Positions 37,935 through 63,918 are shown, counted from the first letter of the stretch. The stretch: DNA of 64,000 nucleotides from a virus (IMGVR_UViG_3300005663_000028:96001-160000), one strand, 5' to 3'. A program made the numbers and translations. The notes: a model not told the origin generated them from the letters alone.

Positions 37935-38587
37935 TAAATAAAATCTCCGTCAATTTGCTGTTCCATCTTCGGGGTCCAAATACCATCGATTAAACCTATT
38001 TTCATTGCTTGTTTAGGAGACATCCATCCAGTATCTCGCATAAGTTCCTTAAGCTTTTTCGGAGAAAGCTTTGATCTTTTCGCTAAATCGGTTACCTTCT
38101 TGTCATAATCATCCTTCAGATAACCTGTCATTGCTAAGTGCTTCTCAATGGAATCCGCTGGAGCTTGAATTACTATAGAATGTAACATCATTGACGAATT
38201 GGGTGTTGCAAATCTAAACCCTTTTGTTCCATACATGGCAATCATAGCGCCCATAGAATGAGCATATCCACGAACAATAGTATTGATGGGAGCACGACAC
38301 GCTGCCATTTGATCTATAATTGCGTATCCAGAAGACATACACCCTCCTGGACTATTGATGTACATATATATAGGGTCTTTAGATAAAGAAAACACTTGCA
38401 AATAACTACAAGTTTGTAAAGACGTGATTTCATCTATAACACCAGAAATTAGTAGTCGCCGTGTTTTTATTAGGAAATCTTCAACCAACTCATTAAACTC
38501 TACACAAATCGAACCGCCCCCCTCCTGTTCTGGACTATGTGTTTCTTCACAATTACCGTTGCATTTCTTTTTTTTACTAAACTGCAT
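37934..38587 (-). CDS. clpP: ClpP serine protease subunit
   Basis: IYMYINSPGG, AHSMGA (Ser), MMLH (His), RDTGWM..AMKIGLIDGI (Asp). Confidence 0.9.
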   Translation of the reverse strand: MQFSKKKKCNGNCEETHSPEQEGGGSICVEFNELVEDFLIKTRRLLISGVIDEITSLQTCSYLQVFSLSKDPIYMYINSPGGCMSSGYAIIDQMAACRAPINTIVRGYAHSMGAMIAMYGTKGFRFATPNSSMMLHSIVIQAPADSIEKHLAMTGYLKDDYDKKVTDLAKRSKLSPKKLKELMRDTGWMSPKQAMKIGLIDGIWTPKMEQQIDGDFI

Positions 38588-39461
38588 TAATTTCTCCGAA
38601 AGGATGACACCGTTTGTGGAGTAATTTCAATTTTTCTGGACTAGTGACAAGATAAGTCTGTGTTGTCGATAGATGTTTGTGACCCAACAAAACTTGAATA
38701 AGTTCAAGATCAACTCCTCGATCCATAAGTGACGTTGCGCATGATCGTCGCAGTGTATGAGAAGTAGTGTGTTTCACACCAGCACGACGCGAAAGAGATA
38801 GTAACATACCACTAACCGCCCTGCGACTAATCCTCTGGCCATCCCCCTTGACAAAAACAGCATTAGAGGTAGATTTCCGTTCTAAATCTATGTATTCTTT
38901 AATAGCCTCTATGCATCGACTAGTGGTTGGGACGATTCTCTCGCAGAAACCCTTGCCCTTCACCTTCATTTCTCGTCTGGCAAAATTGATGTCGCAGACA
39001 TCAAGACTACATAATTCTGAGACTCGCAGCCCACTGTGATACATAGTCAGTATAATAGCGACATCCCTACGAACGTTAGTTGCTCGCAATACGGGTACAC
39101 GATTTTCCACAGTGGCCACCAGAGCGTCCACAGCCTGAGATTCAAGTACATCAAATGTTCCTTTTTCAATACGAACAGAGTCTGTCATTCCTAGAATGTT
39201 TTTATCCAATTTTCCAAGACTGATGAGGTGGTTACAAAAACAACGAATAGACATGTATTTTCTACGTACACTTGTCGACTTAAGCCCTCGTTGGTGTAGA
39301 CTGCTAACAAATTCTTCAATAAGTTTCGCCGTCAACTGTTTGTTTCCGATAAAACATAGAAATTCTTTCACATCTCTAGTGTACGCTGAAAGTGTTTCCT
39401 GAGATAAACCAAGTTCTGTTAGGATGTATGTTTCAAACCCATCAATTGTTAGGGAAGTCAC
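38577..39461 (-). CDS. XerC/XerD-like tyrosine recombinase
   Basis: SQETLSAYTRD SAM-like domain, GLRVSEL, VKGKG, HTLRRS, LLGH, TQTY. Confidence 0.92.
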   Translation of the reverse strand: MTSLTIDGFETYILTELGLSQETLSAYTRDVKEFLCFIGNKQLTAKLIEEFVSSLHQRGLKSTSVRRKYMSIRCFCNHLISLGKLDKNILGMTDSVRIEKGTFDVLESQAVDALVATVENRVPVLRATNVRRDVAIILTMYHSGLRVSELCSLDVCDINFARREMKVKGKGFCERIVPTTSRCIEAIKEYIDLERKSTSNAVFVKGDGQRISRRAVSGMLLSLSRRAGVKHTTSHTLRRSCATSLMDRGVDLELIQVLLGHKHLSTTQTYLVTSPEKLKLLHKRCHPFGEINAV

Positions 39462-39785: not shown

Positions 39786-41603
39786 TTACACTCTAGGATA
39801 TTTTGATTCAACCCCCTCGGTTCCATCTTCCAGCTTGACTATTTCCAGTCCATGTGCAAAAAGCGGTGCTTTATCTTGTAGGATACGGCAGATTTTGACG
39901 GCAAGCTTTCTTATCTCAAGGTCGGCGGCCGGATTTGCCCGTAATTCAATCAAGTGACGAATTGCTCTTGCATTCATTGTGACAACTATTTTGGTTTCTG
40001 TGGCATTCGGCAATACAGATCGTGCAGCTTGACGAGCCTTTTTCCTCCGTTCTAGTCCACTCTCTATATCACTATACATATCCGATAGTTTAGTTGTCAA
40101 TTCTTCATAGACTTGTCGAGACCTTTCGCAGTGTTCAATCCACGATCGATAAGCTTCTGGATCAATCTTTTCCAATTCTTGCATAGCAGGAGGAACTATA
40201 AAGGACACATCAGAAGAATCAACATACCGTTGACTAATTTGAGAATACGAAGCAATTCTGTGACGAACTAACTCGTGTGTTAAGCTGCGGGAAACATTCC
40301 ATATTAAGAAATTGAAACTGGCATGCTCAATACAAGAATTTCCACACCATACCGGTTTACCATTTCTTCTGACATAAAGTGTATGATTTGGAACTTCTAC
40401 GCAATAAACATTCCCTTCCCAGGAATCAATCCAGGATGTTTTTCCTACGCAGTCAACATATTTGTTCACTTCAGGCTTAAGTTCTTTTCTTATGACAGAT
40501 AAACGTATAAGTGTTTTATTCCCGAATGAATTTTTTCTTTGTGTTCCTTCGTATTCGTGGCAGATGTTGGCAGCCAATCCTATGTGTAGACATAATTGTT
40601 GAAACTGGTTTGCCAATTTCCTACTCGTAGTGTCAAAGGATATTTGGTGTGATCCCCGCGATCCATCAGCTTCTATCAAGCCTTCATACAAAGCAGTTAA
40701 TTGATCAATGGAACTTTTCACAAATAAATATTGTGGAATTTGCTTGTTTCTATCCTCGGTATACATATCTCTAAACACACGAACTTCTGCATCAGTAGAC
40801 AAGGTTACAGCAAAGTTTCCGTCTTGACCCTCCCTAATTGGTAAATTCAGTGACTCACACAATCCTTTTAGAAAAGAAATTTTTCTCTCCTTGTATAGAT
40901 GAAACTTTACTTGCCTGCTGTTTGGTTGACTACTTCCGTCTCCAATGGCAAATCCCAACAATTTATAATGATTACAACTCATATCATCTGTTTGGTGTCT
41001 GATTTTCCAATCCGCAGTTTTAATATATGCGTGTGAGGAATCATTTAGTTCATCCGCCCTAATTAGGTCAAAATTTTCTCTTTTTCTGCCTTGTTTAGTG
41101 GTGGTTTTGCATACCAACATACTGTGATTAGGAGTCACTAATAAGTCTACACCCTTACCCTCCACTCGATACATCTTACCTTTATGTAAGTATGTCGTAA
41201 AGTTAGATGCTGGTTGATATTCCAGTTTGCCATCTACACTTCTCGTAGCAAACAAATCTTTGTCACAAATATCTCTAAAGTATTTCCACCCATCAGATGT
41301 AAGAACTTCTGTCTCTTCATCATAACAGCCATGTCCTATCTCAATGAGATGCTTAATATGATCTTCGTGAGACCTTCCCTTGGGTTCCTCTCCCTGTTTG
41401 GGCCAACTTAAGTAGCATAATCTCCCCGCTGCTTCCACTAGCCATTCCGCATCGTCATCACCAAGAGATATCATAGACTCTAGCTTCTTTTCGAATTCAG
41501 GCCAAGCGAGGCCATGGTCTTGTAAGAATTCTGTTATTCCATCAATTTCTATAACTGGTTTTCCCACCAGTACGACTTTCGGTTCAGTTACAAAATTACT
41601 CAT
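39786..41603 (-). CDS. thyX: flavin-dependent thymidylate synthase ThyX (intein-containing precursor)
   Basis: AGRLCY, GHG|SCIEHAS after excision, SRSLTHELVRHRIASYSQISQRY, RSVLPNATET, MNARAIRH. Confidence 0.93.
   Translation of the reverse strand: MSNFVTEPKVVLVGKPVIEIDGITEFLQDHGLAWPEFEKKLESMISLGDDDAEWLVEAAGRLCYLSWPKQGEEPKGRSHEDHIKHLIEIGHGCYDEETEVLTSDGWKYFRDICDKDLFATRSVDGKLEYQPASNFTTYLHKGKMYRVEGKGVDLLVTPNHSMLVCKTTTKQGRKRENFDLIRADELNDSSHAYIKTADWKIRHQTDDMSCNHYKLLGFAIGDGSSQPNSRQVKFHLYKERKISFLKGLCESLNLPIREGQDGNFAVTLSTDAEVRVFRDMYTEDRNKQIPQYLFVKSSIDQLTALYEGLIEADGSRGSHQISFDTTSRKLANQFQQLCLHIGLAANICHEYEGTQRKNSFGNKTLIRLSVIRKELKPEVNKYVDCVGKTSWIDSWEGNVYCVEVPNHTLYVRRNGKPVWCGNSCIEHASFNFLIWNVSRSLTHELVRHRIASYSQISQRYVDSSDVSFIVPPAMQELEKIDPEAYRSWIEHCERSRQVYEELTTKLSDMYSDIESGLERRKKARQAARSVLPNATETKIVVTMNARAIRHLIELRANPAADLEIRKLAVKICRILQDKAPLFAHGLEIVKLEDGTEGVESKYPRV
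40338..41327 (-). mobile_element. 330-aa intein with LAGLIDADG homing endonuclease in thyX
   Basis: starts CYDEETEVLTSDGW, block B VTPNH, LAGLIDADG-like LLGFAIGDGS and LYEGLIEADGS, ends VYCVEVPNHTLYVRRNGKPVWCGN followed by Ser+1. Confidence 0.93.
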
Positions 41604-43330
41604 CAGATTTTTCCCTCGTTTTCAACAATAAGGTCCAATTCTTTAGCCCGATTCCCACACTCTATCAATTTACGTCCAATCATAATAGCTTCATCCCCTG
41701 TAAAATCCATAGGGAAAAATCCTTTGGGCCAATAATTTCCCATTTTCTCTAAATCAAGCTCCACGTTAACACATACATCTGGTCCTTCTCCCCATGTACA
41801 AGATATACTTACCTCATCCCCCGTTTTCAAAACATATTCCGATACCGGACCTTTATCGTGGTGCATCTTCATTACCCTTTCTTATTTCACAAACTTCCAA
41901 CAATTCCCACTAACGACAAGTTTCACCCCATCTATACTCTTCTAGTTCATTAACATTCCCTATATAACAAAGCGCTCTTAAAGCATCTAAATTATTCCCA
42001 TTGTAAATTGGATTTATCGTCGAATATAAGTCGAATCTCCAACAACCATCCCATATTCCTTTAATTACACCATCTTTGTGACAAAAGACACAGGTTCTCT
42101 CATATGAAGTTTTACCCATTGGGTGCCAAATATGTCCAAATGGCCAAGTCCAAAAACATTGCTTGTGAGATAGAAAACCGTTTCTGTTTATTAATTTGTC
42201 AATTTTCCTGGTTATTGCAGCCCTAAGTTTTGTTCTCATTTTCTCTTTCTCTTATCAACAGCCTTTTGCAATGCTTTAATCATCGGTTTTACATCCCAAC
42301 TCCACATGAATTGGTCGAATGGCGATTCCGGATCCAAGCATTCAGCGTCAATTTCAGTCAATGGACATTTACCACAATCGCCGCTACGACGGGGATCATG
42401 AGTTTTACACAACGCACATGTAGAATCATCAATTCTTAGATAAGCAATATCACGATCACAATCATCTTCATCGTCAGTAACATCCGATTTATTCATCACA
42501 TTTCCATCGTATAGTACTACATCGTGTTTCTTTAGGTTTGCGGGTTTAAGGCCAAGCCATTTCTTAAGTGAGTGTCTAAGAGCGTATCTTTTAGACACTT
42601 TATCTGCCGGTGTTCGATAAAACTCTTTTTTCCATGTTGCCAAACTCATTGTTTTCTCCTTAAATCATAAAGCATTTTACACTTCTCTTCTTCGACTTTA
42701 TTCAAGTTAATATCGAAATAATCTGCTAACCATTGTTCAATTCTAGAATGAATGGGCCAGTATTCTTCGTTTTCCCTATTGCATATGAACAAATGTTTTT
42801 CATCTTGTAGCCATTCCAAAAATCCACCTATCGTCTGCGACTGATCTCTTACTGCCGCCATTTTTTCGCATTCCAGATATCTTTTTGGTTTATCCTGTTG
42901 ATTTTTCATTTCTTTTCATCCAAAAAGATATCAGATTGTATTGTTGGCGGTTTCATATTTTCTTTCCTTTATGCGAATATGCGAAACTAATACAAAACGA
43001 ATCCACATTGGGAATAAACGGCAAAGCGAATATTTCTTTAGTTTTCTGATGTAAAATAACTTCTGACATCAAATGATCAATGAGTTGCCCCCGCTCTGTT
43101 GCTGTTTTTGTGTATTCAACGTTTAAAGAAATATGAGTAATTTGTCCATTTCCATCAAACTCTTCTTGAAGAAAGAGTAGTTGTTTACGTCTACCTTTCT
43201 GAGTTTTTGCAAATTCCAAACAATAGATTTTAAAAGAATAATCATCTCCATAATCTACTTCATAAGTTTCAACAACTTCACTACCTTGGATTTGAATTTT
43301 ATTTGATTCCAGAAAGCTTTTCGTCAACAC
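41603..43330 (-). other. five small hypothetical CDS (41603-41872, 41910-42239, 42236-42649, 42646-42909, 42953-43330)
   Basis: ORF track, coupled starts and stops. Confidence 0.6.
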
Positions 43331-44793
43331 TTGACTTCTCCTTTTGTTATTTTGTACGGAAGCGTAACGCCCTTAAATTCGTTCGGTGAAATTATTGCTA
43401 ACTGTTCCACCACACGACTCCTAAGACTAACAGCAATATCTAAAACAATTTTCAATTCACTCGACTCAACAGTATCAGAAGTTCTATGGGGAAATATCAG
43501 CTTCAACAACCCCGATCCAATCCGGACCAAAGACCTTTGATTCCGTTGAGACATATCCCCAAAATCGACGTTACCCATTATAAGCGGAGCGTAGTTTCTA
43601 TCTCTCATATGATGCATAATTTCACTGATATAATCGGCCATAAACCCTTCACCCTTAGCGAGCTTTGATTCACGAATCTGTGGGATGCGCCAACCTGGAA
43701 TATACCCGTGTATTCTATCAAGGAAGGCTCTGTCTTGATTGATTACTTGGGGGAATGGGGAGAACAAACTGCGATATCTTACAGAGACTTCTCTTTTGTT
43801 GCGATCACAATCAATGTTGCCAGCAAACATAATGGAGCAACCGGAAGTAAATTCCGCTGTACCACGACCAAATCGCCCCGAATTCATAAAGTCCTTCAAC
43901 ATATCTATCAAGTCGCCTTGCCCAGACCACTTATTGGCCCCTCGACTACTAGCAAACTCATCGAACATAACTACATCTCGGTATCCAATGAGACCCAACT
44001 GTCGTCTCAGTTTGTCATAAAACAAGGATGCTACAGTAGTTTGACCACCAGAAATAACAAAACTATAAGAACTGAGTGATTGATATGCAAATGTCTTTCC
44101 AGTCTCTGGTGGTCCCAGTTCTACAAGATTGACGTTGGGTTCAATAAACGGGACCAATCTTGCTATGTATAACCACTTCTCCTCTTCAGAAAGATGATCC
44201 GGATCAAACCCAATGCTGGTAATCATCAAGTCCAACCATTCTTGGTCTGTAAGTTTAGCTCTACGTTCTATCCAAGTATCGACGTTGATTCCAGTAATTT
44301 GAATTGGCTTGAACTCGGTCAGTAAAAACGGATACAATTTGTTTCTCATCACAAACGAATCATCATAAATGATTTTGAAAACCCCCCAAGCCCCTGTCGT
44401 CAAGAGAGTCTCCCCGAATTCTGCGATAAGATAGGGGTCTATCCTTACGTATTGGTTCCCCAAAGCTGTGACATCACACCAATATTCATCTTTCGATTCA
44501 TCATATCGACATCTGATTCGGCCAATGAGGGTGTATTCACCCTTCTCACGAATTTGACTTTTCACCCAATCCTTCTGATCAGCTTCCATAAAATGCGAAT
44601 CGAGAAGCTTACCAATTCTTTCCAACCCAGGAGTCGGATCGGTGGGGTCTACCATTTCTGCAACAAGGAAATCTGCTACAAAACTTGGTAATTTTCTCCA
44701 TTGTTCATTCAAGATTGTCAGACTTTTGTTTACAATTATTCCGCGATCTGGGAAAACAGTAGTTATTTTTGATCTTGTCTCAGTTTCGATCAT
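43324..44793 (-). CDS. brxL: BrxL-family AAA+ ATPase lacking the C-terminal Lon protease domain
   Basis: NLVELGPPETGKT, ISGGQTTVASLFY, GLIGYRDVVMFDE, AFLDRIHGYIPGW; ends shortly after RSRVVEQL. Confidence 0.85.
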   Translation of the reverse strand: MIETETRSKITTVFPDRGIIVNKSLTILNEQWRKLPSFVADFLVAEMVDPTDPTPGLERIGKLLDSHFMEADQKDWVKSQIREKGEYTLIGRIRCRYDESKDEYWCDVTALGNQYVRIDPYLIAEFGETLLTTGAWGVFKIIYDDSFVMRNKLYPFLLTEFKPIQITGINVDTWIERRAKLTDQEWLDLMITSIGFDPDHLSEEEKWLYIARLVPFIEPNVNLVELGPPETGKTFAYQSLSSYSFVISGGQTTVASLFYDKLRRQLGLIGYRDVVMFDEFASSRGANKWSGQGDLIDMLKDFMNSGRFGRGTAEFTSGCSIMFAGNIDCDRNKREVSVRYRSLFSPFPQVINQDRAFLDRIHGYIPGWRIPQIRESKLAKGEGFMADYISEIMHHMRDRNYAPLIMGNVDFGDMSQRNQRSLVRIGSGLLKLIFPHRTSDTVESSELKIVLDIAVSLRSRVVEQLAIISPNEFKGVTLPYKITKGEVKC

Positions 44794-48199: not shown

Positions 48200-50973
48200 T
48201 TAGTACTTCAGTCCTTCGAAGTAAAGGAATCGCTCGTATTCCCCCTTACACCCATCTTGTTTAGCTAATTCGTCGCTCGCATCACAGAGTTCTTTAATAT
48301 CTTGCTTGAATTTAGCTAATTCGATCTGCAATTGGTCGGACGTAAAAACACCCTTTTTCTTTCTTGCTCCAATCCATGTTTTTTTACTTATTTCTACATC
48401 TACGTCCAAAGCAGATATCCACTTAGCTTCGACCCTGATGCCACACTCTTCCCAAATTCGAACGAGATACGTTCTAGGTTTGAGTAGCCGACGAAGTTCT
48501 CTTGCAGCTTCTTTTTTTGTCATGGTTTCTTTCCTAGTTGAAACTCTTGGTATGTAAATTGTTTGTATCCCCCTCCTACCTTTTCTTCTCGTAAATGGTT
48601 TGTACCAAATTTTTTCACAACCACTTCCCCCACAAGTTGCACATATTACTGCGGTTCCTTTTGGCTCAGCACACCCAATATATAAACCAGTTCCATCACA
48701 ATCCCAACATTCTGCTTCTATACTTTCCTGACTCATCGTTTTATTTCTCCAATCACTAGGGACAAGGTTCAGATAAGGGCTCTAATTGTCTCATAATATA
48801 CCCCAAGGTGTCATCCAACAATTTCTATAAGCGGCTTGACGAGCCCTTCTCCTTGCTACGACTAATGACGTACATCTTTTGATTTTACGAACATAAGCCG
48901 CTTGTTCTTTCATGTAAGGCAAGTGCCAATCTATCCATTGTTTGTAATTGAGTTGTCCCAGGCCGAATAAGCATACACCTTCTTCGCAATGACTACTACC
49001 ATCAAAGATTTTCCAGTTAATTTTCATGATCCTTATTTTCCACAAGAGCCAATAATCTTCTAGCCCATAGAACTTTTCCTGCATTTTGTCCCGCTCTGTA
49101 TGCCCGCTGGGGAGAGTATTCTGCATAACCACACACTGTACCATTCTTATCCCTTTTAAGTTGGTCTGACCAACACTGTTTTTCTGCCATCTGCCTAATG
49201 TGTTTAACCAATACAATGAACTCATCTGCCATATCTTTATTACGTGCCCATCCCATTTTTCTTCTCCTTATGAAATTTTTCTGTTTACAGAAAATTTCTT
49301 ATCTAGAGTCTGTGACCCCTACACTTTTAACCCGAACATCTATAATATCAAGATCGTCTGCGTCCATTTCTGGAAAAAAGTCAGCCCCTTCAAGAGCATA
49401 TGTGCCGTTAGCTTCTTCGTCTTCGTGAAGCAAAACATCTAGAACTACTCTATAATGTACTTTTCTCATATTTTTCTCTCTTATTTTGTTAAGCCTCTAG
49501 CAAACTGTTTCGCATCAGAAAAGCAGAAAAAATCTTGATACCACGATTGGCGTTTTGGGGAGATAGACACGGAATAATAGAATCTATTTCCGTATGCATT
49601 ATATTTTCTTATGGCATAACTTCCATTATTCTGGACTAATTTTCCCCTGGAATCGTATTCTCTAATCCAAACTGTTTTACTTCTACCTCTAGTTCGAGAC
49701 ATAAAACAAACCTCCTGGAGAAAACTCCTTAATCTCGAACTCAATCGCTTTCTCACGGTTTTTGTTTTGGTGAAGAATTTTCCCATCTAGAGATAAGACC
49801 TGCCAGACTTGTTCGCCTTCATGAAATTCTACGTTTGATGCTTTGTGGACATTTGTTACTTTACCAATAGCGAACAAGTCGATTTGGTCTGTCCATAAAC
49901 AGTGAACATCACCTTGGTTATCTATGTCTAAAACCACCTTCATCGATCAGACTCCACTTTTATTTCTATGGTTCAATGCAATATACAACTAACGCTACTA
50001 TAGAAAGCATCCAAGCGACCAAAATAACTAGGGTTATTTTCCAACTAAAAATCAATCCTAACAAAGCTAAACAGAGTCCTCCCCCAAAAAGCCAAACACA
50101 AATAACGGAGTCCCAAATTTTCATGAGTTTCTTTTTTATTTTACTTTTCATTTTGTTGTTCCCAAGCGTAGTGTCCCGTTCCGAAAGGCCCCCACCCTGT
50201 TATCCTTGGTGCTGCCTGAAGTGCCGCACCAAGTGTCCAACTATACCAGACACATAACGATAGTAATCCCGTCTAAAAACATACTTGGCCTAATTTTTTC
50301 ATATTATTTTCCCTTAATAGTCCCACATAGGGACAAATCCAAAAACATCGACTAATTCCGCTAATAGTTCTGGACCTTCTAAACAATTTTCATCATTTTG
50401 CATAACAGATTCACCGTTAAAACATTGAGTTTTAATAAAAAATTCCAAAACTTTTTCAAAGACTTTATTTTTTGTTTCTTGATCATCGTGATACATAAGA
50501 TTCAATAGCGATTCTCCCTCAAATGTTCTCATTGTCATTTTTTATCCTTTCTTGTTTGTCCATAGCACTTTCAAGGTCTTTCCCCACCGCTTCCCAATCT
50601 TTGCGAATAGTATCCTCATCAGTCACAGACAGTATTTTTTCCGTTTCTGCGAATGGACGAGGGTTTTCTTTTGGGAAAATACCGATCTGTGACATAGCTT
50701 TCCATAGATTTTTCCAGAACTTTTTAAGGGTCACTTTTTCTTTCCTTCATTAGCTCTTTTTTCAATTTGTCTAATCTCTTCTTGTGAAAGATATTTGTAA
50801 GCAGCCATCCTTTGCTCTTTTGCATATTCTACTAAACTACCACAGCTAGCCCCACCAAAAACACCTCTGACAAAAAGTTGTGTTCTTGCCGACAGATCGT
50901 CTGTATCGTATTTGTCTATAACGAATGTGGTGAATTCAGCTAATGCATAGGCTATTTTATCGACAGACATCAT
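48200..50973 (-). other. cluster of small hypothetical CDS (e.g. 48200-48736 with CxxCxGxG, 48791-49030, 49017-49256, 49299-49469, 49689-49943, 49966-50151, 50314-50538, 50519-50734, 50731-50973)
   Basis: ORF track plus a manually read 56-aa ORF at 49299-49469. Confidence 0.5.
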
Positions 50974-52483
50974 TAATTGTCCCTTTTTGGTTTGTTATAG
51001 TAAAATCGACATTTGTTCGAAATTCATTAATATCAGAACATCCAGCATACGATATTCCCGACCTTAAAGAACCTGCATATCTTTTAAGTAACTTTTCTAA
51101 TGATTCTCCTAGTGGAAGGTATTTTACGCAACCTTCCGGGGCGTCATTACTTACTGAGCCTCTCCATTTTTCTTGTACTAATCTACTGGCCATTCCTGCA
51201 TAGATTTTTTCTCCGTGTTCATTTAACAAGGCGGCACTTTCCGGGCATGAAGCAAAAATCTTACCAGCCATTACACTCGATGAGCCTGCGGCTATTGCCT
51301 TAACAAAGTCTGCTGGTTCCCTAATTCCTCCATCGCTAATTATTGGTAATCCGTAGGTTCTAGAGGCTGTTATACATTTCTGGATGGCTGAAAATTGTTT
51401 CTCCGTTACACCTGCCGTATTTTTGGTTTCACAAACAAATCCTTGTGCTATCCCAACCTTTACGGCCGATGCAAAGTCTGCGCTTTCTGCGAACAAACCT
51501 GGGTTAATTGTATTTCCAACTACGATATGAACGTTTGGTGCAAACTGTTTAATTAGACGGCCAAGTTCTATAACAGGTTCACAATATCCATGCGCTACAT
51601 CAATAAAAATAATATTAGCATTAGCCCGAATGAGCTTCTTGGCTAGATCAAATTGTGAAACACCGATACCTACCGAAACCGCTACCCATCTGTTGTTTTT
51701 ATGTATTTGGTTAGTCCATTTTTCCAACACGTTATCAGAAGAGGCCCTATGGAGAACCCCCATAGCTCCTAATTTTTCTAATAAAATACAAAATTCAGGG
51801 TTGGTTACAGTGCTCATGTTAGAAGCAATTAATGGAATATCTAATTCAACACCTCTTATTATTTCGGATACAATATTTACATTAGACCGTGATTGAACTA
51901 CTGATTTTTTTTGAAGAATACTGACGTCTTCGAATCCGAGAGATATTGGTGTTGTCGACATTTTGATAGAGGGGTTAATAAAATATTCACAAGTACTATG
52001 GTCAAAATGAATAATACCCCGACCGACGAGATCAAAAGCAATTTTTTCCAATTTTGAATGTAATTTTCTATGGTTGGAATTACTTGATACGGCACAGAGG
52101 TTTGTCAATGAGTTATCGTCTTTTCGGCCGTTAATGTGGTGGATTATCCACCCATTATCTATCAAATTAAACCCCGTGGTTTCTTCCATAACTAGATGGT
52201 GTTCCCCAATATAGCGTTTTCGTCTTTCATCCCAAATCATTATGTAATTACCAGGCTTACCGGCCTTGATTTTCCTACCGAATCTGGTTTTTATTTTTTG
52301 GTTGTCCCTGCTTCTGGAGCATGGTCCACACAAATCCTTTCCCCATTTTTCCCTAGAATCTTTGGCTTTTCTCCACTGTGGTTTACTTTCTGTCCCACAA
52401 GAGTCACATATCTTTAATACTAGGTATGTTCTCTTTAATGTTGAAAAGTCGTTTATTGTTTTATTATCAAGTGTTTTGATCAT
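50957..52483 (-). CDS. HNH endonuclease fused in frame to an IMP dehydrogenase / GMP reductase family enzyme
   Basis: N-terminal CxxC pairs, EHHLVME..IHHINGRKDDN..NL (HNH); from residue ~175 SLGFEDV, IPLIASNMSTV, IFIDVAHG, KVGIAQGFVCET, IISDGGI, YAGMAS. Confidence 0.88.
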   Translation of the reverse strand: MIKTLDNKTINDFSTLKRTYLVLKICDSCGTESKPQWRKAKDSREKWGKDLCGPCSRSRDNQKIKTRFGRKIKAGKPGNYIMIWDERRKRYIGEHHLVMEETTGFNLIDNGWIIHHINGRKDDNSLTNLCAVSSNSNHRKLHSKLEKIAFDLVGRGIIHFDHSTCEYFINPSIKMSTTPISLGFEDVSILQKKSVVQSRSNVNIVSEIIRGVELDIPLIASNMSTVTNPEFCILLEKLGAMGVLHRASSDNVLEKWTNQIHKNNRWVAVSVGIGVSQFDLAKKLIRANANIIFIDVAHGYCEPVIELGRLIKQFAPNVHIVVGNTINPGLFAESADFASAVKVGIAQGFVCETKNTAGVTEKQFSAIQKCITASRTYGLPIISDGGIREPADFVKAIAAGSSSVMAGKIFASCPESAALLNEHGEKIYAGMASRLVQEKWRGSVSNDAPEGCVKYLPLGESLEKLLKRYAGSLRSGISYAGCSDINEFRTNVDFTITNQKGTINDVCR

Positions 52484-52596
52484 GTTGTTGCTTCAGCTAG
52501 TCTGATAATTATATTCTGGGTCTTGTTCGAATTCAGAGAAGGTCGTTGCGGGACCAGCAAGATGTCGTTAAAACAAAGATCGTGTTGTTCAGTCAT
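52480..52596 (-). pseudogene. orphaned 38-aa N-terminus of an IMPDH/GMPR gene (MTEQHDLCFNDILLVPQRPSLNSNKTQNIIIRLAEATT)
   Basis: read manually; LCFNDILLVPQ matches the GuaB/GuaC start motif LTFDDVLLVP; TAATG-coupled upstream and ATGA-coupled to the HNH fusion. Confidence 0.8.
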
Positions 52597-52853
52597 TAGT
52601 CAATTTTCCATTTCTTGTTTTTCCCAAGGGTTAGTCCTAACGCGAAAGCTCTCACTTCGTCTAGAGATTGAAATACCCCCATTTTAGTTTCACATCTTGG
52701 GTCTTGGCTATCCATCATAGACTGCCATTTGTTTATATACCTACTATCTCCCACAATAAAGTTTTGATTATTTAAGATATCAAGGAAATAACAGTTTCTT
52801 CTCAGTTCGTCTTGTAATCGACGAAATCTAATTACCGTGGTAGAGTCGTACAT
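52596..52853 (-). CDS. small hypothetical protein
   Basis: ORF track. Confidence 0.55.
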   Translation of the reverse strand: MYDSTTVIRFRRLQDELRRNCYFLDILNNQNFIVGDSRYINKWQSMMDSQDPRCETKMGVFQSLDEVRAFALGLTLGKNKKWKID

Positions 52854-52865
52854 TTGTTTCTCTCC

Positions 52866-53294
52866 TTAAAGTTTTATTTTTCTTACCAACGAATATTTCT
52901 TTTTGTCTGTTGGTTTCGGTTTGGGATTTTTGACGGCGTACTCGGATGCATAATTTTTACCACCATGCCCTTCAACCACATTCAATACACTGTCTCCCGG
53001 TGCCGCTGCTGGTGCCCCCGCACACATTTTGAAAAATTGTTCTGGACTTATTAAGTCTATTCCTAAATATCGAGCAATTTTTGCCTTAGCAGACATGCTT
53101 GCCGGGTCAGCTATAACCAGTATAGTTGTTTTACTAGTTACTGTTTTGGTTGTTGACGCATTGGCAGCTACTGCTATGGCCTCCATTTCGCTACGAGGTT
53201 TAGGACTTTTACCTGTGAAGCAGAATATTGCTGGCTTTATGGCTCCAGTACTGTCATTCAAAAATTGCATTGGCATTTCTATTCTGGTCCCCAA
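52866..53294 (-). CDS. stand-alone BRCT-domain protein (NAD-ligase C-terminal type)
   Basis: FCFTGK..RSEME......TVTSKTTILVI...SAKAKIARYLGIDLISPEQF. Confidence 0.82.
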   Translation of the reverse strand: MGTRIEMPMQFLNDSTGAIKPAIFCFTGKSPKPRSEMEAIAVAANASTTKTVTSKTTILVIADPASMSAKAKIARYLGIDLISPEQFFKMCAGAPAAAPGDSVLNVVEGHGGKNYASEYAVKNPKPKPTDKKKYSLVRKIKL

Positions 53295-53493
53295 CTGTAT
53301 GACTTAAGAACCTTTCCATCTCTTTTAACCTCGAACGATCCACTACCATCTGCATTTATAGTGGTTGAGGAGAATGTTCTCCAAGTATCCGCTTTACCCG
53401 TAGCCGATTGACTACCGAGTCTACTAGACCCTTTACACCTATTTGCATCATATCCAAAAGCTCTTGCTCTACATTTAGCCATAACAATTCTCC

Positions 53494-53910
53494 TTACCTA
53501 TATCCAGTAATCTCAACCCTTTGGTGACCACTCTCAGGGCATCGCTCTCTAGTGACGGTCCGCCCCATCTCTTCTTGGTCTAGCTTCAGTTTATGAAACG
53601 CATAATTTTGCCTGAGTTGCCCAACCCATTTTGCCCCATACCTAGTGGAGTCATATTCTGAGATAATGGCTTGATATGTTTCTTCTTCGGTTTTTGCGAA
53701 ACCCAAATCATTAGACATGTCTCCGACATGTCTCTTTCGGATTATGATATGGGCCTTCTCTGCCCTCTCGTCATCTTTCCAGCCAACGAGAGACTGAGGG
53801 GTAGCATGTACCTCTATTTGGTCGAGGCTCCACTTACCAGTTTCCATTAAAGCAGCGACTAATGCTGTTTTGTCGGTAAAAACGGTCTTTACTATGCAAT
53901 ATCTTGACAC
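53494..53910 (-). CDS. DUF1257 (Ycf35-like) protein
   Basis: SRY..VKTVFTDKTALVAAL...L.GW...R...A.III.......SNDLGF...Y.AIISEYD...L.QNYA; GTG start with GGAG RBS. Confidence 0.78.
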   Translation of the reverse strand: MSRYCIVKTVFTDKTALVAALMETGKWSLDQIEVHATPQSLVGWKDDERAEKAHIIIRKRHVGDMSNDLGFAKTEEETYQAIISEYDSTRYGAKWVGQLRQNYAFHKLKLDQEEMGRTVTRERCPESGHQRVEITGYR

Positions 53911-53911
53911 G

Positions 53912-54943
53912 TTATTCTCCTTGGTTTTTGAGGTACCGGGCTCTTGCAAAAGCATTTAGGGGTGGAATTACCACCCCATTACATTCACAATTATTCTGTA
54001 ATTCTCCACAGTCTGAGCAAAATGAGTCATCGCAACGACAGGGATAAAAATCACAATCACCACACCATTCGTCGTCGTCATTATCATTCCATTTCTTTAT
54101 CCCCGCACGAGGGTACCATTTACAGACAGTGGAATCATTTTGAAGGACATCACCGCATCTGCACCTACGTGGAGATACCACTTTGGGATCGTCAGGACAG
54201 ACACAGTCGAATCCGTGGCAATCTTCACATAGTTCGTCGCAGATACACACATCTTCGAGACAAACATCGCACCAAGGATCATTTTCATCACTGTCGTCTA
54301 GACAATCGGTACACCATACCTCTCCCTTTTCACGATCCATAATACCACAAAGATTGCACCCGGCGTTATCTTTGTCGAGCCCGCATAAACATTGACAATG
54401 AACATCGTCTACGAAACCACAATCACAGTCAAGGAAATCATCTAGACAGCTTTTACAGATGAATCTGCCGTCAGTTGTTTTCCTTGCAATACTACAAACG
54501 GAACATCCCCTACCCTCACAGCAGTCACTTACGCTATCACTACATTCGATACAACAATCATTGTCTTCGTCACAGAGACAGTCACAATCATGGTCACTAT
54601 TGTGACCCGAGCAATCAATGAATCTTTGGTGACATTTATCGCATGTGTCGTCTGCTATACATTCTTCGCATAGTTTTTTGTTACCATCAGCCAAACTTCC
54701 GTTACAATCGACACAAGTTCCTCGATAGACTTCGTCAGCATCAGCTTTGCACTGATCATCTTGACTACATTCGGGACACTCACATCGACCAGCCATAAAC
54801 TCGTTAATACTGGTCAATAAATCATGGATCGCTATCGCGTCGGGAGTGTTGACCCCTTCTGATGTGCGAATCCAACCGTGGTCCCATATTCTTTGGAATT
54901 CCTGAAATAAAGACGTCGCTACTTGAATATTACTTTTTACCAT
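53912..54943 (-). CDS. very Cys/Asp-rich repeat protein (51 Cys in 343 aa)
   Basis: repeated CxxC-x4-6-CxC units; AGGAG RBS upstream. Confidence 0.75.
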   Translation of the reverse strand: MVKSNIQVATSLFQEFQRIWDHGWIRTSEGVNTPDAIAIHDLLTSINEFMAGRCECPECSQDDQCKADADEVYRGTCVDCNGSLADGNKKLCEECIADDTCDKCHQRFIDCSGHNSDHDCDCLCDEDNDCCIECSDSVSDCCEGRGCSVCSIARKTTDGRFICKSCLDDFLDCDCGFVDDVHCQCLCGLDKDNAGCNLCGIMDREKGEVWCTDCLDDSDENDPWCDVCLEDVCICDELCEDCHGFDCVCPDDPKVVSPRRCRCGDVLQNDSTVCKWYPRAGIKKWNDNDDDEWCGDCDFYPCRCDDSFCSDCGELQNNCECNGVVIPPLNAFARARYLKNQGE

Positions 54944-62575: not shown

Positions 62576-63235
62576 CTACTTCGCTCCCATTTCATTTGTA
62601 AGCAAATTCAAATCGATTTCTTTATCAAGCTCGCAACCTCTCAGCCACTTGGCGAATTGTGCAACTCTTAATCCCGCTGAAACGTTTGCGCAGTAAATGG
62701 TTGTCTTAGCCGTACACGACCCATTGTAAGTTTCTGCTTGTGGGAAAAATGTTGTGCCGTAGTGCTCTCGTGAAGTGTCATCATAGACGATGAATATTCT
62801 CATATATTCAGCGCTCATCCTGGCATCTATAAATAAGTCTGCTCGTTCTTTTACGGTTTCGAAAATTGATTTTCTGGTGGAAATTTTATCTACACAACAA
62901 AATAGTACACCCCCAGTGAAGTCCATTGATCGGAACTTACGGTTGACGGTAGTTATTTCAATTGCGGGGTTGATAGCAGCACAAATATCCTTGACTGCAT
63001 CTACTTTGAATTTTCCGAGATCGGCTTCGTGATATCCTTGACAAGCAAGATTCTCTACAGAAACTAAATCGAAGTCGATAAGCCGTAGTCGTGGCACTCC
63101 AATAGCTGCCAGTTGAAGTGCCACTTGTCTTCCTCCTGCACCGACACCAACTATTGTGGCTCTAATAGCGGATAGTTTATCTGGTGGTATTAATTCTTTT
63201 TGTCTGATGTCTCTATTTTTTAGCAGATTTTCCAT
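62576..63235 (-). CDS. ThiF/MoeB/E1-like adenylyltransferase
   Basis: IVGVGAGG, LIDFDLVSVENL..Q, KVDA, CCVD, IDARM, GSC; AAGGAG RBS. Confidence 0.88.
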   Translation of the reverse strand: MENLLKNRDIRQKELIPPDKLSAIRATIVGVGAGGRQVALQLAAIGVPRLRLIDFDLVSVENLACQGYHEADLGKFKVDAVKDICAAINPAIEITTVNRKFRSMDFTGGVLFCCVDKISTRKSIFETVKERADLFIDARMSAEYMRIFIVYDDTSREHYGTTFFPQAETYNGSCTAKTTIYCANVSAGLRVAQFAKWLRGCELDKEIDLNLLTNEMGAK

Positions 63236-63279
63236 GGTTTTCTACTCCTTTTGTGTATAATAAGGTTGGAGGAAAGGTT

Positions 63280-63918
63280 ATGAAATATTCGAAAGCCCAA
63301 CAAAGTCGCGTAGATAAGGGGTTGTGCGCTAAATGTGGGGAGCCCACTGATCATACTGTTTATTGTTCCAAATGTACTAGAGTGTGTACTGAATACAATA
63401 GACAGAGAAGGGCCAAGCGACGAGAGTTGGGAATATGTTATACGTGCGGAAACAGTACGGAAAATAATCGTGCGTATTGTCCAGAGTGTCTAAAAAAGGC
63501 TCGTAAATATAGAACTGCTTACAAATTGAAGGCTCCATACGGTGTTTGTGTTATTTGTCGTGTGGAATCATGCCTGCCATCATTAGTAGACGCAACATTA
63601 TATCGGCGAATTTGTCAGAACTGTTATCTTAAAAACGCGTCCTGTTCACAATTAGGGTCGGTTGAATACTGGAAGCAATTGCTTTGTAAACTAGAAGCCC
63701 AACAATTTCGTTGTGTATATTCTGGAGATGAACTTATATTGGGAGTTAACGATTCCATGGATCATATTTATCCAAAATCTAGGTATCCTGACAAAGCCCT
63801 AGACCCATCTAATATCCAATGGGTTACTCGCACAGTCAATATGGCTAAGGGGTGTTTAGATCATGATGAGTTTTTAACCCTAATTCGCCGTATCAACAAC
63901 CGTTTTCCAAAAGACTAA
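63280..63918 (+). mobile_element. free-standing HNH endonuclease with N-terminal zinc-finger repeats, antisense to flanking genes
   Basis: three CxxC...CxxC units; RCVYSG..MDHIYP...NIQWV...N.AKG; own TATAAT (63256-63261) and GGAGG RBS before ATG at 63280. Confidence 0.82.

Follow-up and report, generated by a model that had tools for sequence, protein, structure and literature searches.

The subject of this report is a stretch of 64,000 nucleotides (nt) of viral DNA (IMGVR_UViG_3300005663_000028:96001-160000), hereafter the window, representing bases 96001-160000 of a 179.5-kb phage record of IMG/VR rated complete, and in particular a short open reading frame (ORF), the mini-ORF, followed by a gene in which an HNH nuclease module continues in frame into an enzyme of the IMP dehydrogenase/GMP reductase (IMPDH/GMPR) family. 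Two subfamilies of this enzyme are distinguished here, the canonical type B and the divergent type A. The comparisons made indicate that the mini-ORF is what remains of the 5' end of a type B gene and that, in the window phage, a cassette consisting of the HNH module and a type A enzyme has displaced type B from about codon 37 on. This reading, a stub plus a displacement, is considered highly probable, and it is proposed with moderate confidence that the cassette is a homing-type "cleave-and-replace" element with a full homing mechanism.

The mini-ORF and the enzyme gene behind it

The mini-ORF (52480-52596, minus strand as for all genes of this locus) encodes 38 amino acids (aa), MTEQHDLCFNDILLVPQRPSLNSNKTQNIIIRLAEATT, and is followed by a 508-aa ORF (50957-52483) made of the HNH module (fusion residues 1-174, 51962-52483; zinc ribbon, HNH_3 core and linker) and, in frame with it, a type A GMP-reductase-like enzyme body of 334 aa plus stop (50957-51961), with no stop between both domains. 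Upstream lies an 85-aa ORF to which no function was assigned (52596-52853), the first gene of a coupled chain: the ATG of the mini-ORF overlaps the TAA of the 85-aa ORF (TAATG), and its TGA overlaps the ATG of the 508-aa ORF (ATGA). A preliminary description of this DNA, made from the sequence alone, had reported the 38-codon ORF, both overlaps and the in-frame HNH-enzyme ORF, and all were found again at these places. Its statement that no Shine-Dalgarno (SD) sequence precedes the internal MSTT start was likewise borne out by a survey of the window genes, in which SD-like motifs were present in 30 of 46 genes (65%) against a background of 16%; none stands before the internal MSTT ATG, the HNH ATG or the mini-ORF ATG, and the 85-aa ORF is the only member of the chain to have one (AAGGAGAG).

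The 38-aa peptide gave no Pfam match at E ≤ 10 and no PDB match by phmmer at E ≤ 10, and its sole match among 18,950 NCBIfam models was to the N-terminus of the GuaB1 IMPDH-related family (E 0.15). A hidden Markov model (HMM) of the N-terminus was built from 10 GMPR/IMPDH proteins of unrelated phages and Salmonella and run without filters over the 6,913 six-frame ORFs of the genome, whereby the fusion ORF ranked first (E 2.3e-4) and the mini-ORF second (E 0.029), the next ORF having an E-value of 0.38. In three related phages, L050, L020 and L051, an intact type B gene occupies the syntenic locus, and tblastn matched the mini-ORF to the opening codons of each, with E-values of 3e-7 to 4e-6 that are relative to very small databases (single loci of ~5-7 kb). 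These genes start with MQDRKLCFNDILLVPQYS... (L050), ...HKFCFDDILLVPQYS... (L020) and ...PKLCFDDILLLPKHS... (L051); the L050 start also reads MQDRKLCFNDILLVPQYSKLDSR, and for one of the related phages with an intact type B gene at this locus the start is MQDRKLCFNDILLVPQ. At the DNA level, 25 of 27 positions over the FNDILLVPQ codons are identical between the mini-ORF and L050, and in the mini-ORF a conserved Ser-Arg has decayed to Ser-Asn.

The position of these type B genes was also compared. In L050 and L020 the intact gene lies between the same flanks as in the window (BRCT, DUF1257, DUF3150 and an 84-aa gene), the order in L020 being DUF1257, a 67-aa gene, BRCT, a homologue of the 85-aa ORF and then a canonical 356-aa IMPDH-type gene with the start ...HKFCFDDILLVPQYSELSSRTIPDITTH and the loop GIGPGSCCTTR. 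L051 carries an intact type B gene with a subset of the same flanks, in a different order and with no BRCT match. The HMM ranking, the NCBIfam match and the alignment to syntenic type B genes support the earlier proposal that the mini-ORF is an orphaned IMPDH/GMPR N-terminus. As for HNH-free alleles in relatives, to which the preliminary description had pointed as a check, intact type B genes do exist in L050, L020 and L051, but no intact allele starting MTEQHDLCFNDILLVPQ at close identity appears in the protein database, since a 42-aa query in which the TGA of the stub was read through, compared with longer proteins, returned one candidate and nothing scoring, which is weak evidence. An import of the stub together with the 85-aa gene from elsewhere was considered and dropped, the 85-aa gene being native to the locus in L020.

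In the enzyme part, a PF00478 (IMPDH/GMPR) match with an E-value of 1.5e-61 spans fusion residues 182-501 and covers profile positions 2-338 of 345; it scores 208.8 bits, the cut-off being 25.6, and the fusion ORF is the only PF00478 gene in the whole genome. Because the match begins at profile position 2, the enzyme is complete without the mini-ORF. All of 16 type A sequences compared share the catalytic-loop Cys (GIAQGFVCETKNTAG), which is C177 when counted within the enzyme part (GIAQGFVCETKN), its loop having been aligned with the type B loop GIGPGS(I/C)CTT by reading the sequences. Scores of the NCBIfam GMP reductase equivalogs PRK05096, PRK05458 and TIGR01305/6 were below their cut-offs (166.1 vs 397 bits, 162.3 vs 344, 148.5 vs 492, 142.5 vs 466), as was that of the IMP dehydrogenase model TIGR01302 (172.6 vs 481.5 bits, in two stretches skipping the CBS region). 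Indeed, neither type A nor type B reaches any NCBIfam GMP reductase or IMP dehydrogenase cut-off and both are without a CBS insert; the 334 aa of type A leave no room for such a (Bateman) insert, and its architecture is GMPR-like with a collinear full-length alignment.

Over all 40-aa windows, the identity of the resident type A enzyme to type B is 21-42%, against 67-95% to its own relatives, and a tree of 154 sequences splits type A from type B by long branches with 100% support. The resident start SLGFEDVSILQKK is the type A signature (SLGFEDVxIxQKK), which is also the start of type A genes free of HNH (L003, MFYQSYGFSDVAIKQK; L019, L036, L037 and L042). Since the enzyme is of type A along its full length, and HNH-free members share the same start, the whole gene was displaced and not its N-terminus alone. 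In 11 phage records a single full-length member of the family was present each time, of type A or of type B, and the two were never found together; in this phage group, the locus between the BRCT-domain gene (52866-53294) and the 84-aa gene (49689-49943) holds one IMPDH/GMPR-family gene of either type, type A usually having the HNH nuclease in frame at its N-terminus. L002 seems to keep the first ~7 type B codons (MNLENTD vs MNLDNIEE), overlapping the end of the upstream gene.

Stubs in other phages and the fusion family

The N-terminal model was run over 30 viral loci and 79 loci from metagenomes and revealed canonical stubs of ~30-51 codons upstream of type A at five independent loci. Besides the window, where the 38-aa stub overlaps the start of the HNH-type A fusion (ATGA), these are L041 (also L094), with the stub MIKIYKNDTLHFDDVVIVPQHSTIRSRKEVDCSTKLGQLTLSTPVLSANMD, closed by a stop codon, 9 nt before the start of such a fusion; L047 (the same as L081), with MFTQGYTFDDVLLIPKHSEVSSRSSVDLSVKLPYGLSLDIPLILRGG up to the stop and 1 nt to the next fusion start; L019, in which a 40-aa stub (MQDRKLCFNDILLVPRYSTLDSRAAPNIVTRYKHLDIIRR) lies 5 nt before an HNH-free type A gene; and L093, in which the stub (1401-1499) is not adjacent, being followed by an RHH gene, a free-standing HNH gene and then type A. 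The stub thus ends ≤10 nt from the next start in four of the five loci, and all stubs are on the same strand as the type A gene behind them and end within the first 30-51 codons of a ~340-codon gene. The Pfam IMPDH model itself detects the stubs of L041 (E 4.9e-8) and L047 (E 1.3e-6). At the stub loci, no longer (>51 codons) or 3' type B remnants were found. The L019 stub agrees at 15 of 15 positions with the beginning of the type B gene that is intact in L050, and the 3' end of the stub in L019 and L047 also supplies an SD-like AGGAG or GAGGGGAGG.

L041 and L047 have no flanking gene in common with the window, three of the five stub loci are in unrelated backbones, and on the type A tree the four stub loci included (L093 was left out) fall into four distant clades. 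Moreover, the cassette stands behind stubs of different canonical subtypes in unrelated genomes. A single ancient event behind the window and L019 stubs was considered and dropped, the L019 stub being near-identical to a living type B start and the window stub decayed, and their type A genes belonging to distant clades. Because the stubs recur in unrelated backbones at clustered break points, the insertion point is set by the target gene and not by its neighbourhood, and a gene-specific nuclease would produce such target-defined insertion points. The pattern points to footprints of an HNH-enzyme pair that repeatedly overwrote the ordinary gene in different phages, and in this respect the earlier suggestion of an invade-and-replace pattern by a homing-type nuclease is strengthened by the stubs recurring in other phages.

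In the HNH module, Pfam HNH_3 (PF13392) was detected at fusion residues 95-139 (E 1.4e-7; 31.4 bits against a cut-off of 24.8), and PHROG 19902 "HNH endonuclease" matches residues 20-170 (E 6e-21). The module is laid out as a CxxC...CxxC zinc ribbon, the HNH_3 core (HHINGRKDDNSLTNL...NHRKLH), a helix and a beta-hairpin linker, which together with the PF00478 match agrees with the described zinc-finger/HNH domain of ~174 aa in frame with a full enzyme. Thirteen residues are invariant in 22 diverse fusions (C26, C29, C52, C55, H95, H115, H116, K121, N128, L129, H138, H142 and Y167), and the CxxC...CxxC ribbon and the motif HHIxGxKxxNxxxNL...H...H are at least 80% conserved in 98 fusions. An AlphaFold model of the module (pLDDT 90) had I-HmuI (1u3e) as best solved match, with a Z of 5.7 that is modest and below the secure level of the tool (3.0 Å over 78 residues, 20% identity; next structure Z 3.5), and a Foldseek search of the PDB with the model gave nothing significant, the top row being again I-HmuI (E 0.27).

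HNH-type A fusions of ~490-550 aa were recovered as more than 100 distinct metagenomic proteins, 43-79% identical over 93-98% of their length, most of them with precomputed HNH_3 and IMPDH domains. No stop separates HNH and enzyme in the window or in these relatives, and the HNH is not a separate ORF with its own stop, as a free-standing homing endonuclease gene (HEG) would be. Over 98 non-identical full fusions the identities of the HNH and enzyme parts co-vary (Spearman 0.45), HNH identity being 35% at 50-60% enzyme identity and 82% above 90% enzyme identity. Relatives number roughly 3,800 for type A and 5,800 for type B in all, and no HNH was present in any of the 119 type B proteins that are closest. 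Met is absent from the 22-aa junction in 49 of the 98 fusions; given this and the lack of an internal SD, the enzyme is most likely made as an HNH fusion rather than from an internal start. The HNH-type A fusion therefore reads as an old, co-diverging and widespread unit, and since it is old and common to more than 100 proteins, the cassette arrived as a unit, so that the claim of a fusion produced at this very locus does not hold. For annotation, this would mean that ~500-aa "GMP reductase" proteins in metagenomes are nuclease fusions and that small ORFs before them can be gene stubs now acting as translational relays. A full-text literature search found no paper on HNH-GMPR/IMPDH fusions in phages, which is no proof of absence.

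The fusion is also repeatedly eroded. On the type A tree, full-HNH, C-terminal-part, short-extension and HNH-less forms are interleaved, with at least 10 gains or losses, and some "partial" forms may be artefacts of gene calling or contig ends. When the window is compared with L002/L005, identity is 77-79% for the cassette and 48-64% for the flanks. The backbones of type B-bearing L050 and type A-bearing L005 (78, 64 and 63% identity) are as close as or closer than those of type A-bearing phages among themselves, and type B genes show no higher conservation than the genes that flank them. Other mobile elements were found at the same gene. A free-standing HNH of another family, PHROG 374, lies directly upstream of an HNH-less type A gene in L039 (2378-2986; E 1e-57) and, after the stub and the small RHH gene, upstream of one in L093 (1720-2436; E 1e-20); Pfam gave no match for these ORFs of 203 aa (L039) and 239 aa (L093), and PHROGs then identified them as HNH endonuclease. 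The type A enzymes of L119 (1082-2977; 632 aa) and L120 (2438-4642; 735 aa) are broken after GIAGG by CFAAGTRILMSNG..., an apparently intein-like insert at the catalytic-cysteine loop. The erosion, these other elements and a cassette closer than its backbone are signs of a selfish nuclease, and its patchy distribution, together with the stubs, adds to circumstantial evidence that would place the HNH module in the homing endonuclease class.

In the mechanism proposed, the HNH would be a homing-type nuclease cutting or nicking canonical genes near conserved N-terminal coding DNA (codons ~30-51), presumably just before or within the ...P(L/I)IS(A/S)(P/N)MD motif, and repair from a cassette-bearing co-infecting genome would copy in the HNH with its isofunctional enzyme, type A being immune to cleavage through its divergent sequence. 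The enzyme, having no start signal of its own, would be made as a 57-kDa fusion, with translation relayed from the SD-bearing 85-aa gene to the stub (TAATG) and from the stub to the fusion (ATGA); such a relay would account for a stub that stays open while its conserved residues decay. Fusion would also make the nuclease harder to lose, for the enzyme would fall silent with any frameshift or stop in the HNH part.

The usual picture of a homing endonuclease is that of a short-lived parasite, which decays after entering a gene or settling beside it. Here a homing-type nuclease appears to be fused to a complete divergent metabolic enzyme and the pair co-inherited over deep divergence, the unusual features being the stable in-frame nuclease-enzyme fusion family and the whole-gene xenologous displacement. 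It may be suggested, tentatively and with less confidence than the mechanism above, that the HNH-type A proteins represent a homing element of the "cleave-and-rescue" kind, occurring naturally in phages, in which the nuclease would target the canonical IMPDH/GMPR 5' region in competing phage genomes while being welded by translation to an immune, recoded rescue enzyme. The metabolic gene would then be overwritten in unrelated backbones and the nuclease could not be lost by nonsense mutation without loss of the enzyme, a welding that would explain the persistence of a selfish nuclease across more than 100 diverged lineages. If the nuclease cuts the ordinary gene, the element would be a natural counterpart of engineered cleave-and-rescue drives and a mechanism of non-orthologous gene displacement in viruses; it would also provide new sequence-specific HNH nucleases with an easily guessed target, the type B 5' region.

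Several points weigh against a homing cassette. No detectable stub was found in ~20 of 24 HNH-bearing cassette loci, and the set of more than 100 fusions is biased towards HNH-bearing proteins, full HNH being present in ~1/4 of the loci in an enzyme-only metagenome sample. The role of the nuclease is read wholly from the arrangement of genes, the argument for horizontal transfer consists of identity differences for a few genes with no formal test, and the tree was made with FastTree only. The left junction inside type B needs an illegitimate join, unlike the two-sided homologous repair of classical homing, and long-term fusion with conservation of the HNH active site is also expected of a useful domain. 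Finally, the L019 stub precedes an HNH-free type A gene, its sister L042 is HNH-free as well, and the L019 type A gene belongs to an HNH-less clade nested among HNH-bearing clades; displacement that leaves a stub may not need a fused HNH, or the HNH may have been lost later. The preliminary description had named a mini-ORF beside an HNH-free full-length gene as a finding that would count against its model, and in L019 this is literally what is seen. L019 weakens a strict need for the HNH in cis and does not overturn the model.

Alternative explanations

A useful rather than a selfish HNH is a rather unlikely alternative, according to which the module was domesticated as a part of the enzyme and type A replaced type B by ordinary recombination; in detail, and with the same low probability, the HNH might degrade host DNA or RNA for nucleotide salvage or tether the enzyme to DNA, the stubs being incidental scars. 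The old, widespread and co-diverging fusion, its conserved catalytic and zinc residues, the frequent absence of an internal start and a linker segment kept in many truncated forms are all consistent with it, and the genome is AT-rich (40% GC), so turning G into A nucleotides could pay. However, the HNH was lost or eroded from the 5' end many times with the enzyme retained and is therefore dispensable for it. The module is moreover of a typical free-standing phage HEG type (PHROG 19902) with relatives beside thymidylate synthase and methylase genes, other kinds of HEG occur at the same gene (HNH in L039 and L093, inteins in L119 and L120), and stubs with clustered break points in unrelated backbones are unlike the outcome of recombination through flank homology.

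It is improbable that the stubs derive from tandem paralogues, type A and type B having once been adjacent and type B having decayed to a stub repeatedly with no nuclease involved. Both genes are intact in none of the 11 phage records, and neither a remnant of more than 51 codons nor a 3' remnant was found; the adjacency of stub and type A on one strand and the variable small-ORF content between BRCT and the enzyme gene, a sign of a plastic region, would fit such a history, but so close a spacing (≤10 nt before the next start in four of five) would not. The identity of the L019 stub to the L050 type B start at 15 of 15 positions also speaks against decay, as does the presence of the cassette behind different canonical stub subtypes in unrelated genomes.

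The preliminary description itself proposed that the HNH had inserted into the phage's own enzyme gene, supplying a new N-terminus to an enzyme otherwise original. The N-terminal motif is indeed duplicated (stub and SLGFEDV...) and stub, HNH and enzyme are tightly coupled, but this version is very improbable: the enzyme is type A from the first to the last 40-aa window and never type B-like, all type A members have the same N-terminus with or without HNH, and the type B genes to which the stub corresponds have 29% identity with the resident enzyme. The notion of a replacement N-terminus on an old enzyme must accordingly be given up, the downstream enzyme being of another subfamily throughout and its N-terminus native to type A.

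Least probable of all is an intron or intein, the stub being an exon spliced to the enzyme, or an accidental likeness. Phage genes of nucleotide metabolism do often contain group I introns with HNH ORFs, and the mini-ORF alone scores weakly with no Pfam or PDB match. But an Rfam scan of 49000-54500 at E ≤ 1 found no RNA family and hence no group I intron, the enzyme N-terminus is already complete and would be doubled by splicing, the HNH reads in frame into the enzyme with no splice-site bounds, and chance is excluded by the HMM ranking, the tblastn alignments to type B and the recurrent stubs; an intron is thus excluded as far as sequence can tell.

Known systems and neighbouring genes

A homing cassette at the window locus can be compared with several known systems. 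In T4 intronless homing, free-standing HEGs lie beside a cleavage-resistant target allele (SegF/gene 56, SegG/gene 32, MobE/nrdB; PMC2988022). Similarly, the window has a phage HEG adjoining a gene whose HEG-less alleles it presumably cuts, a neighbour gene that would travel along, a patchy distribution among relatives and a promoter-less cassette that would be expressed by coupling to upstream ORFs; like MobE and I-HmuI, it is of the HNH type, a type that nicks. Unlike the free-standing T4 HEGs, the window HEG is fused in frame to the co-transferred gene, which is a distant xenologue (~29% identity) and not a near-identical allele; the displaced gene leaves a 5' stub behind, conservation of the unit spans deep divergence (43-79% identity), and homing is deduced from gene arrangement.

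Fungal mitochondrial mORFs offer a second comparison. In gene hybrids of Allomyces macrogynus atp6 and of Glomus atp6, atp9, cox2 and nad3, a foreign C-terminus arrives in phase with an endonuclease ORF, while the native one persists as an unexpressed stub (PMC3630166). The same combination of endonuclease ORF, foreign target-gene copy in phase (in atp6 without an intervening stop) and native part left as a duplicated stub is found in the window, with a different polarity and extent: the stub is N-terminal and upstream here, a mirror image of the C-terminal and downstream stub in fungi, and nearly the whole gene is replaced instead of a terminal segment. The nucleases also differ, an HNH in double-stranded DNA phages, in a stable widespread family, as opposed to LAGLIDADG or GIY-YIG in mitochondria.

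ClvR drives share the logic only, namely a nuclease disrupting a resident gene and linked to an uncleavable recoded copy; they are engineered, use Cas9 and guide RNAs at an unlinked locus and spread by killing non-carriers (PMC6442612), whereas the window element is natural, protein-guided, at its target locus and would spread by gene conversion. I-HmuI (1u3e) is the HNH homing endonuclease of the DNA polymerase intron of Bacillus phage SPO1. It is intron-encoded with a C-terminal helix-turn-helix, unlike the window module with its N-terminal zinc ribbon followed by the enzyme, and the ribozyme core and joining exons of a group I intron with an HNH ORF are missing from the window locus, which has no Rfam match and a complete gene.

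Around the cassette, the BRCT gene (Pfam BRCT, E 1.6e-8) forms the conserved left flank of the variable enzyme locus and is syntenic in L002, L005, L020, L050, L042 and L003, and the 84-aa gene forms the conserved right flank, with 57-63% identity downstream of the enzyme in L002, L020 and L050 whether type A or B is present, and 61% in L005 over just 23 aligned residues. A scan of viral contigs with the 85-aa protein found no relative; an all-against-all HMMER search of a 1.84-billion-protein library gave 15 homologues, of which the one in L020 stands between BRCT and the enzyme gene and the one in L019 immediately precedes the stub. An 80-aa ORF (50731-50973) shares 17 nt with the end of the fusion gene and follows the cassette in L005 too (64% identity); being absent after the cassette in L002, L041 and L047, it is not part of it. 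The GC content of the cassette (37-39%, against 40% for the window) does not mark it out, and none of 50,697 phage records was matched when 50000-53500 was compared with them by megablast.

Further observations concern other window genes. A ThiF/E1-like gene (62576-63235, minus strand) lies beside an opposite-strand ORF (63253-63915, plus strand) resembling Endo VII/HNH (PHROG 1035, E 2.4e-11); this is the thiF case to which the preliminary description refers. Unlike the fused module, this HEG is a free-standing gene, is encoded on the opposite strand, belongs to another family and is not a conserved fusion family. A 605-aa ThyX (39786-41603, minus strand) matches positions 52-190 only of the Thy1 profile, at residues 423-580, and LAGLIDADG_3 at residues 301-373; it probably holds an intein with a homing endonuclease, which would be a third mobile-nuclease footprint in nucleotide-metabolism genes of the window. 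A BrxL-like ATPase of 489 aa (43324-44793, minus strand; BrxL_N and BrxL_ATPase, E 6.5e-104) has no Lon protease part, and a tyrosine integrase/XerC-like gene (38577-39461, minus strand) lies near it.

Two observations concern enzyme relatives elsewhere. In L006 (4559-6329), an HNH-type A fusion is followed by a 191-aa adenylosuccinate-synthetase-like gene, a NADAR gene and an N6/N4 methyltransferase, a context that hints at a purine or base-modification setting for the enzyme there. A close type B relative of 57% identity (P0198) occurs on a 4.9-Mb contig named Candidatus Heimdallarchaeota archaeon and could represent a provirus, a transfer or a binning artefact.

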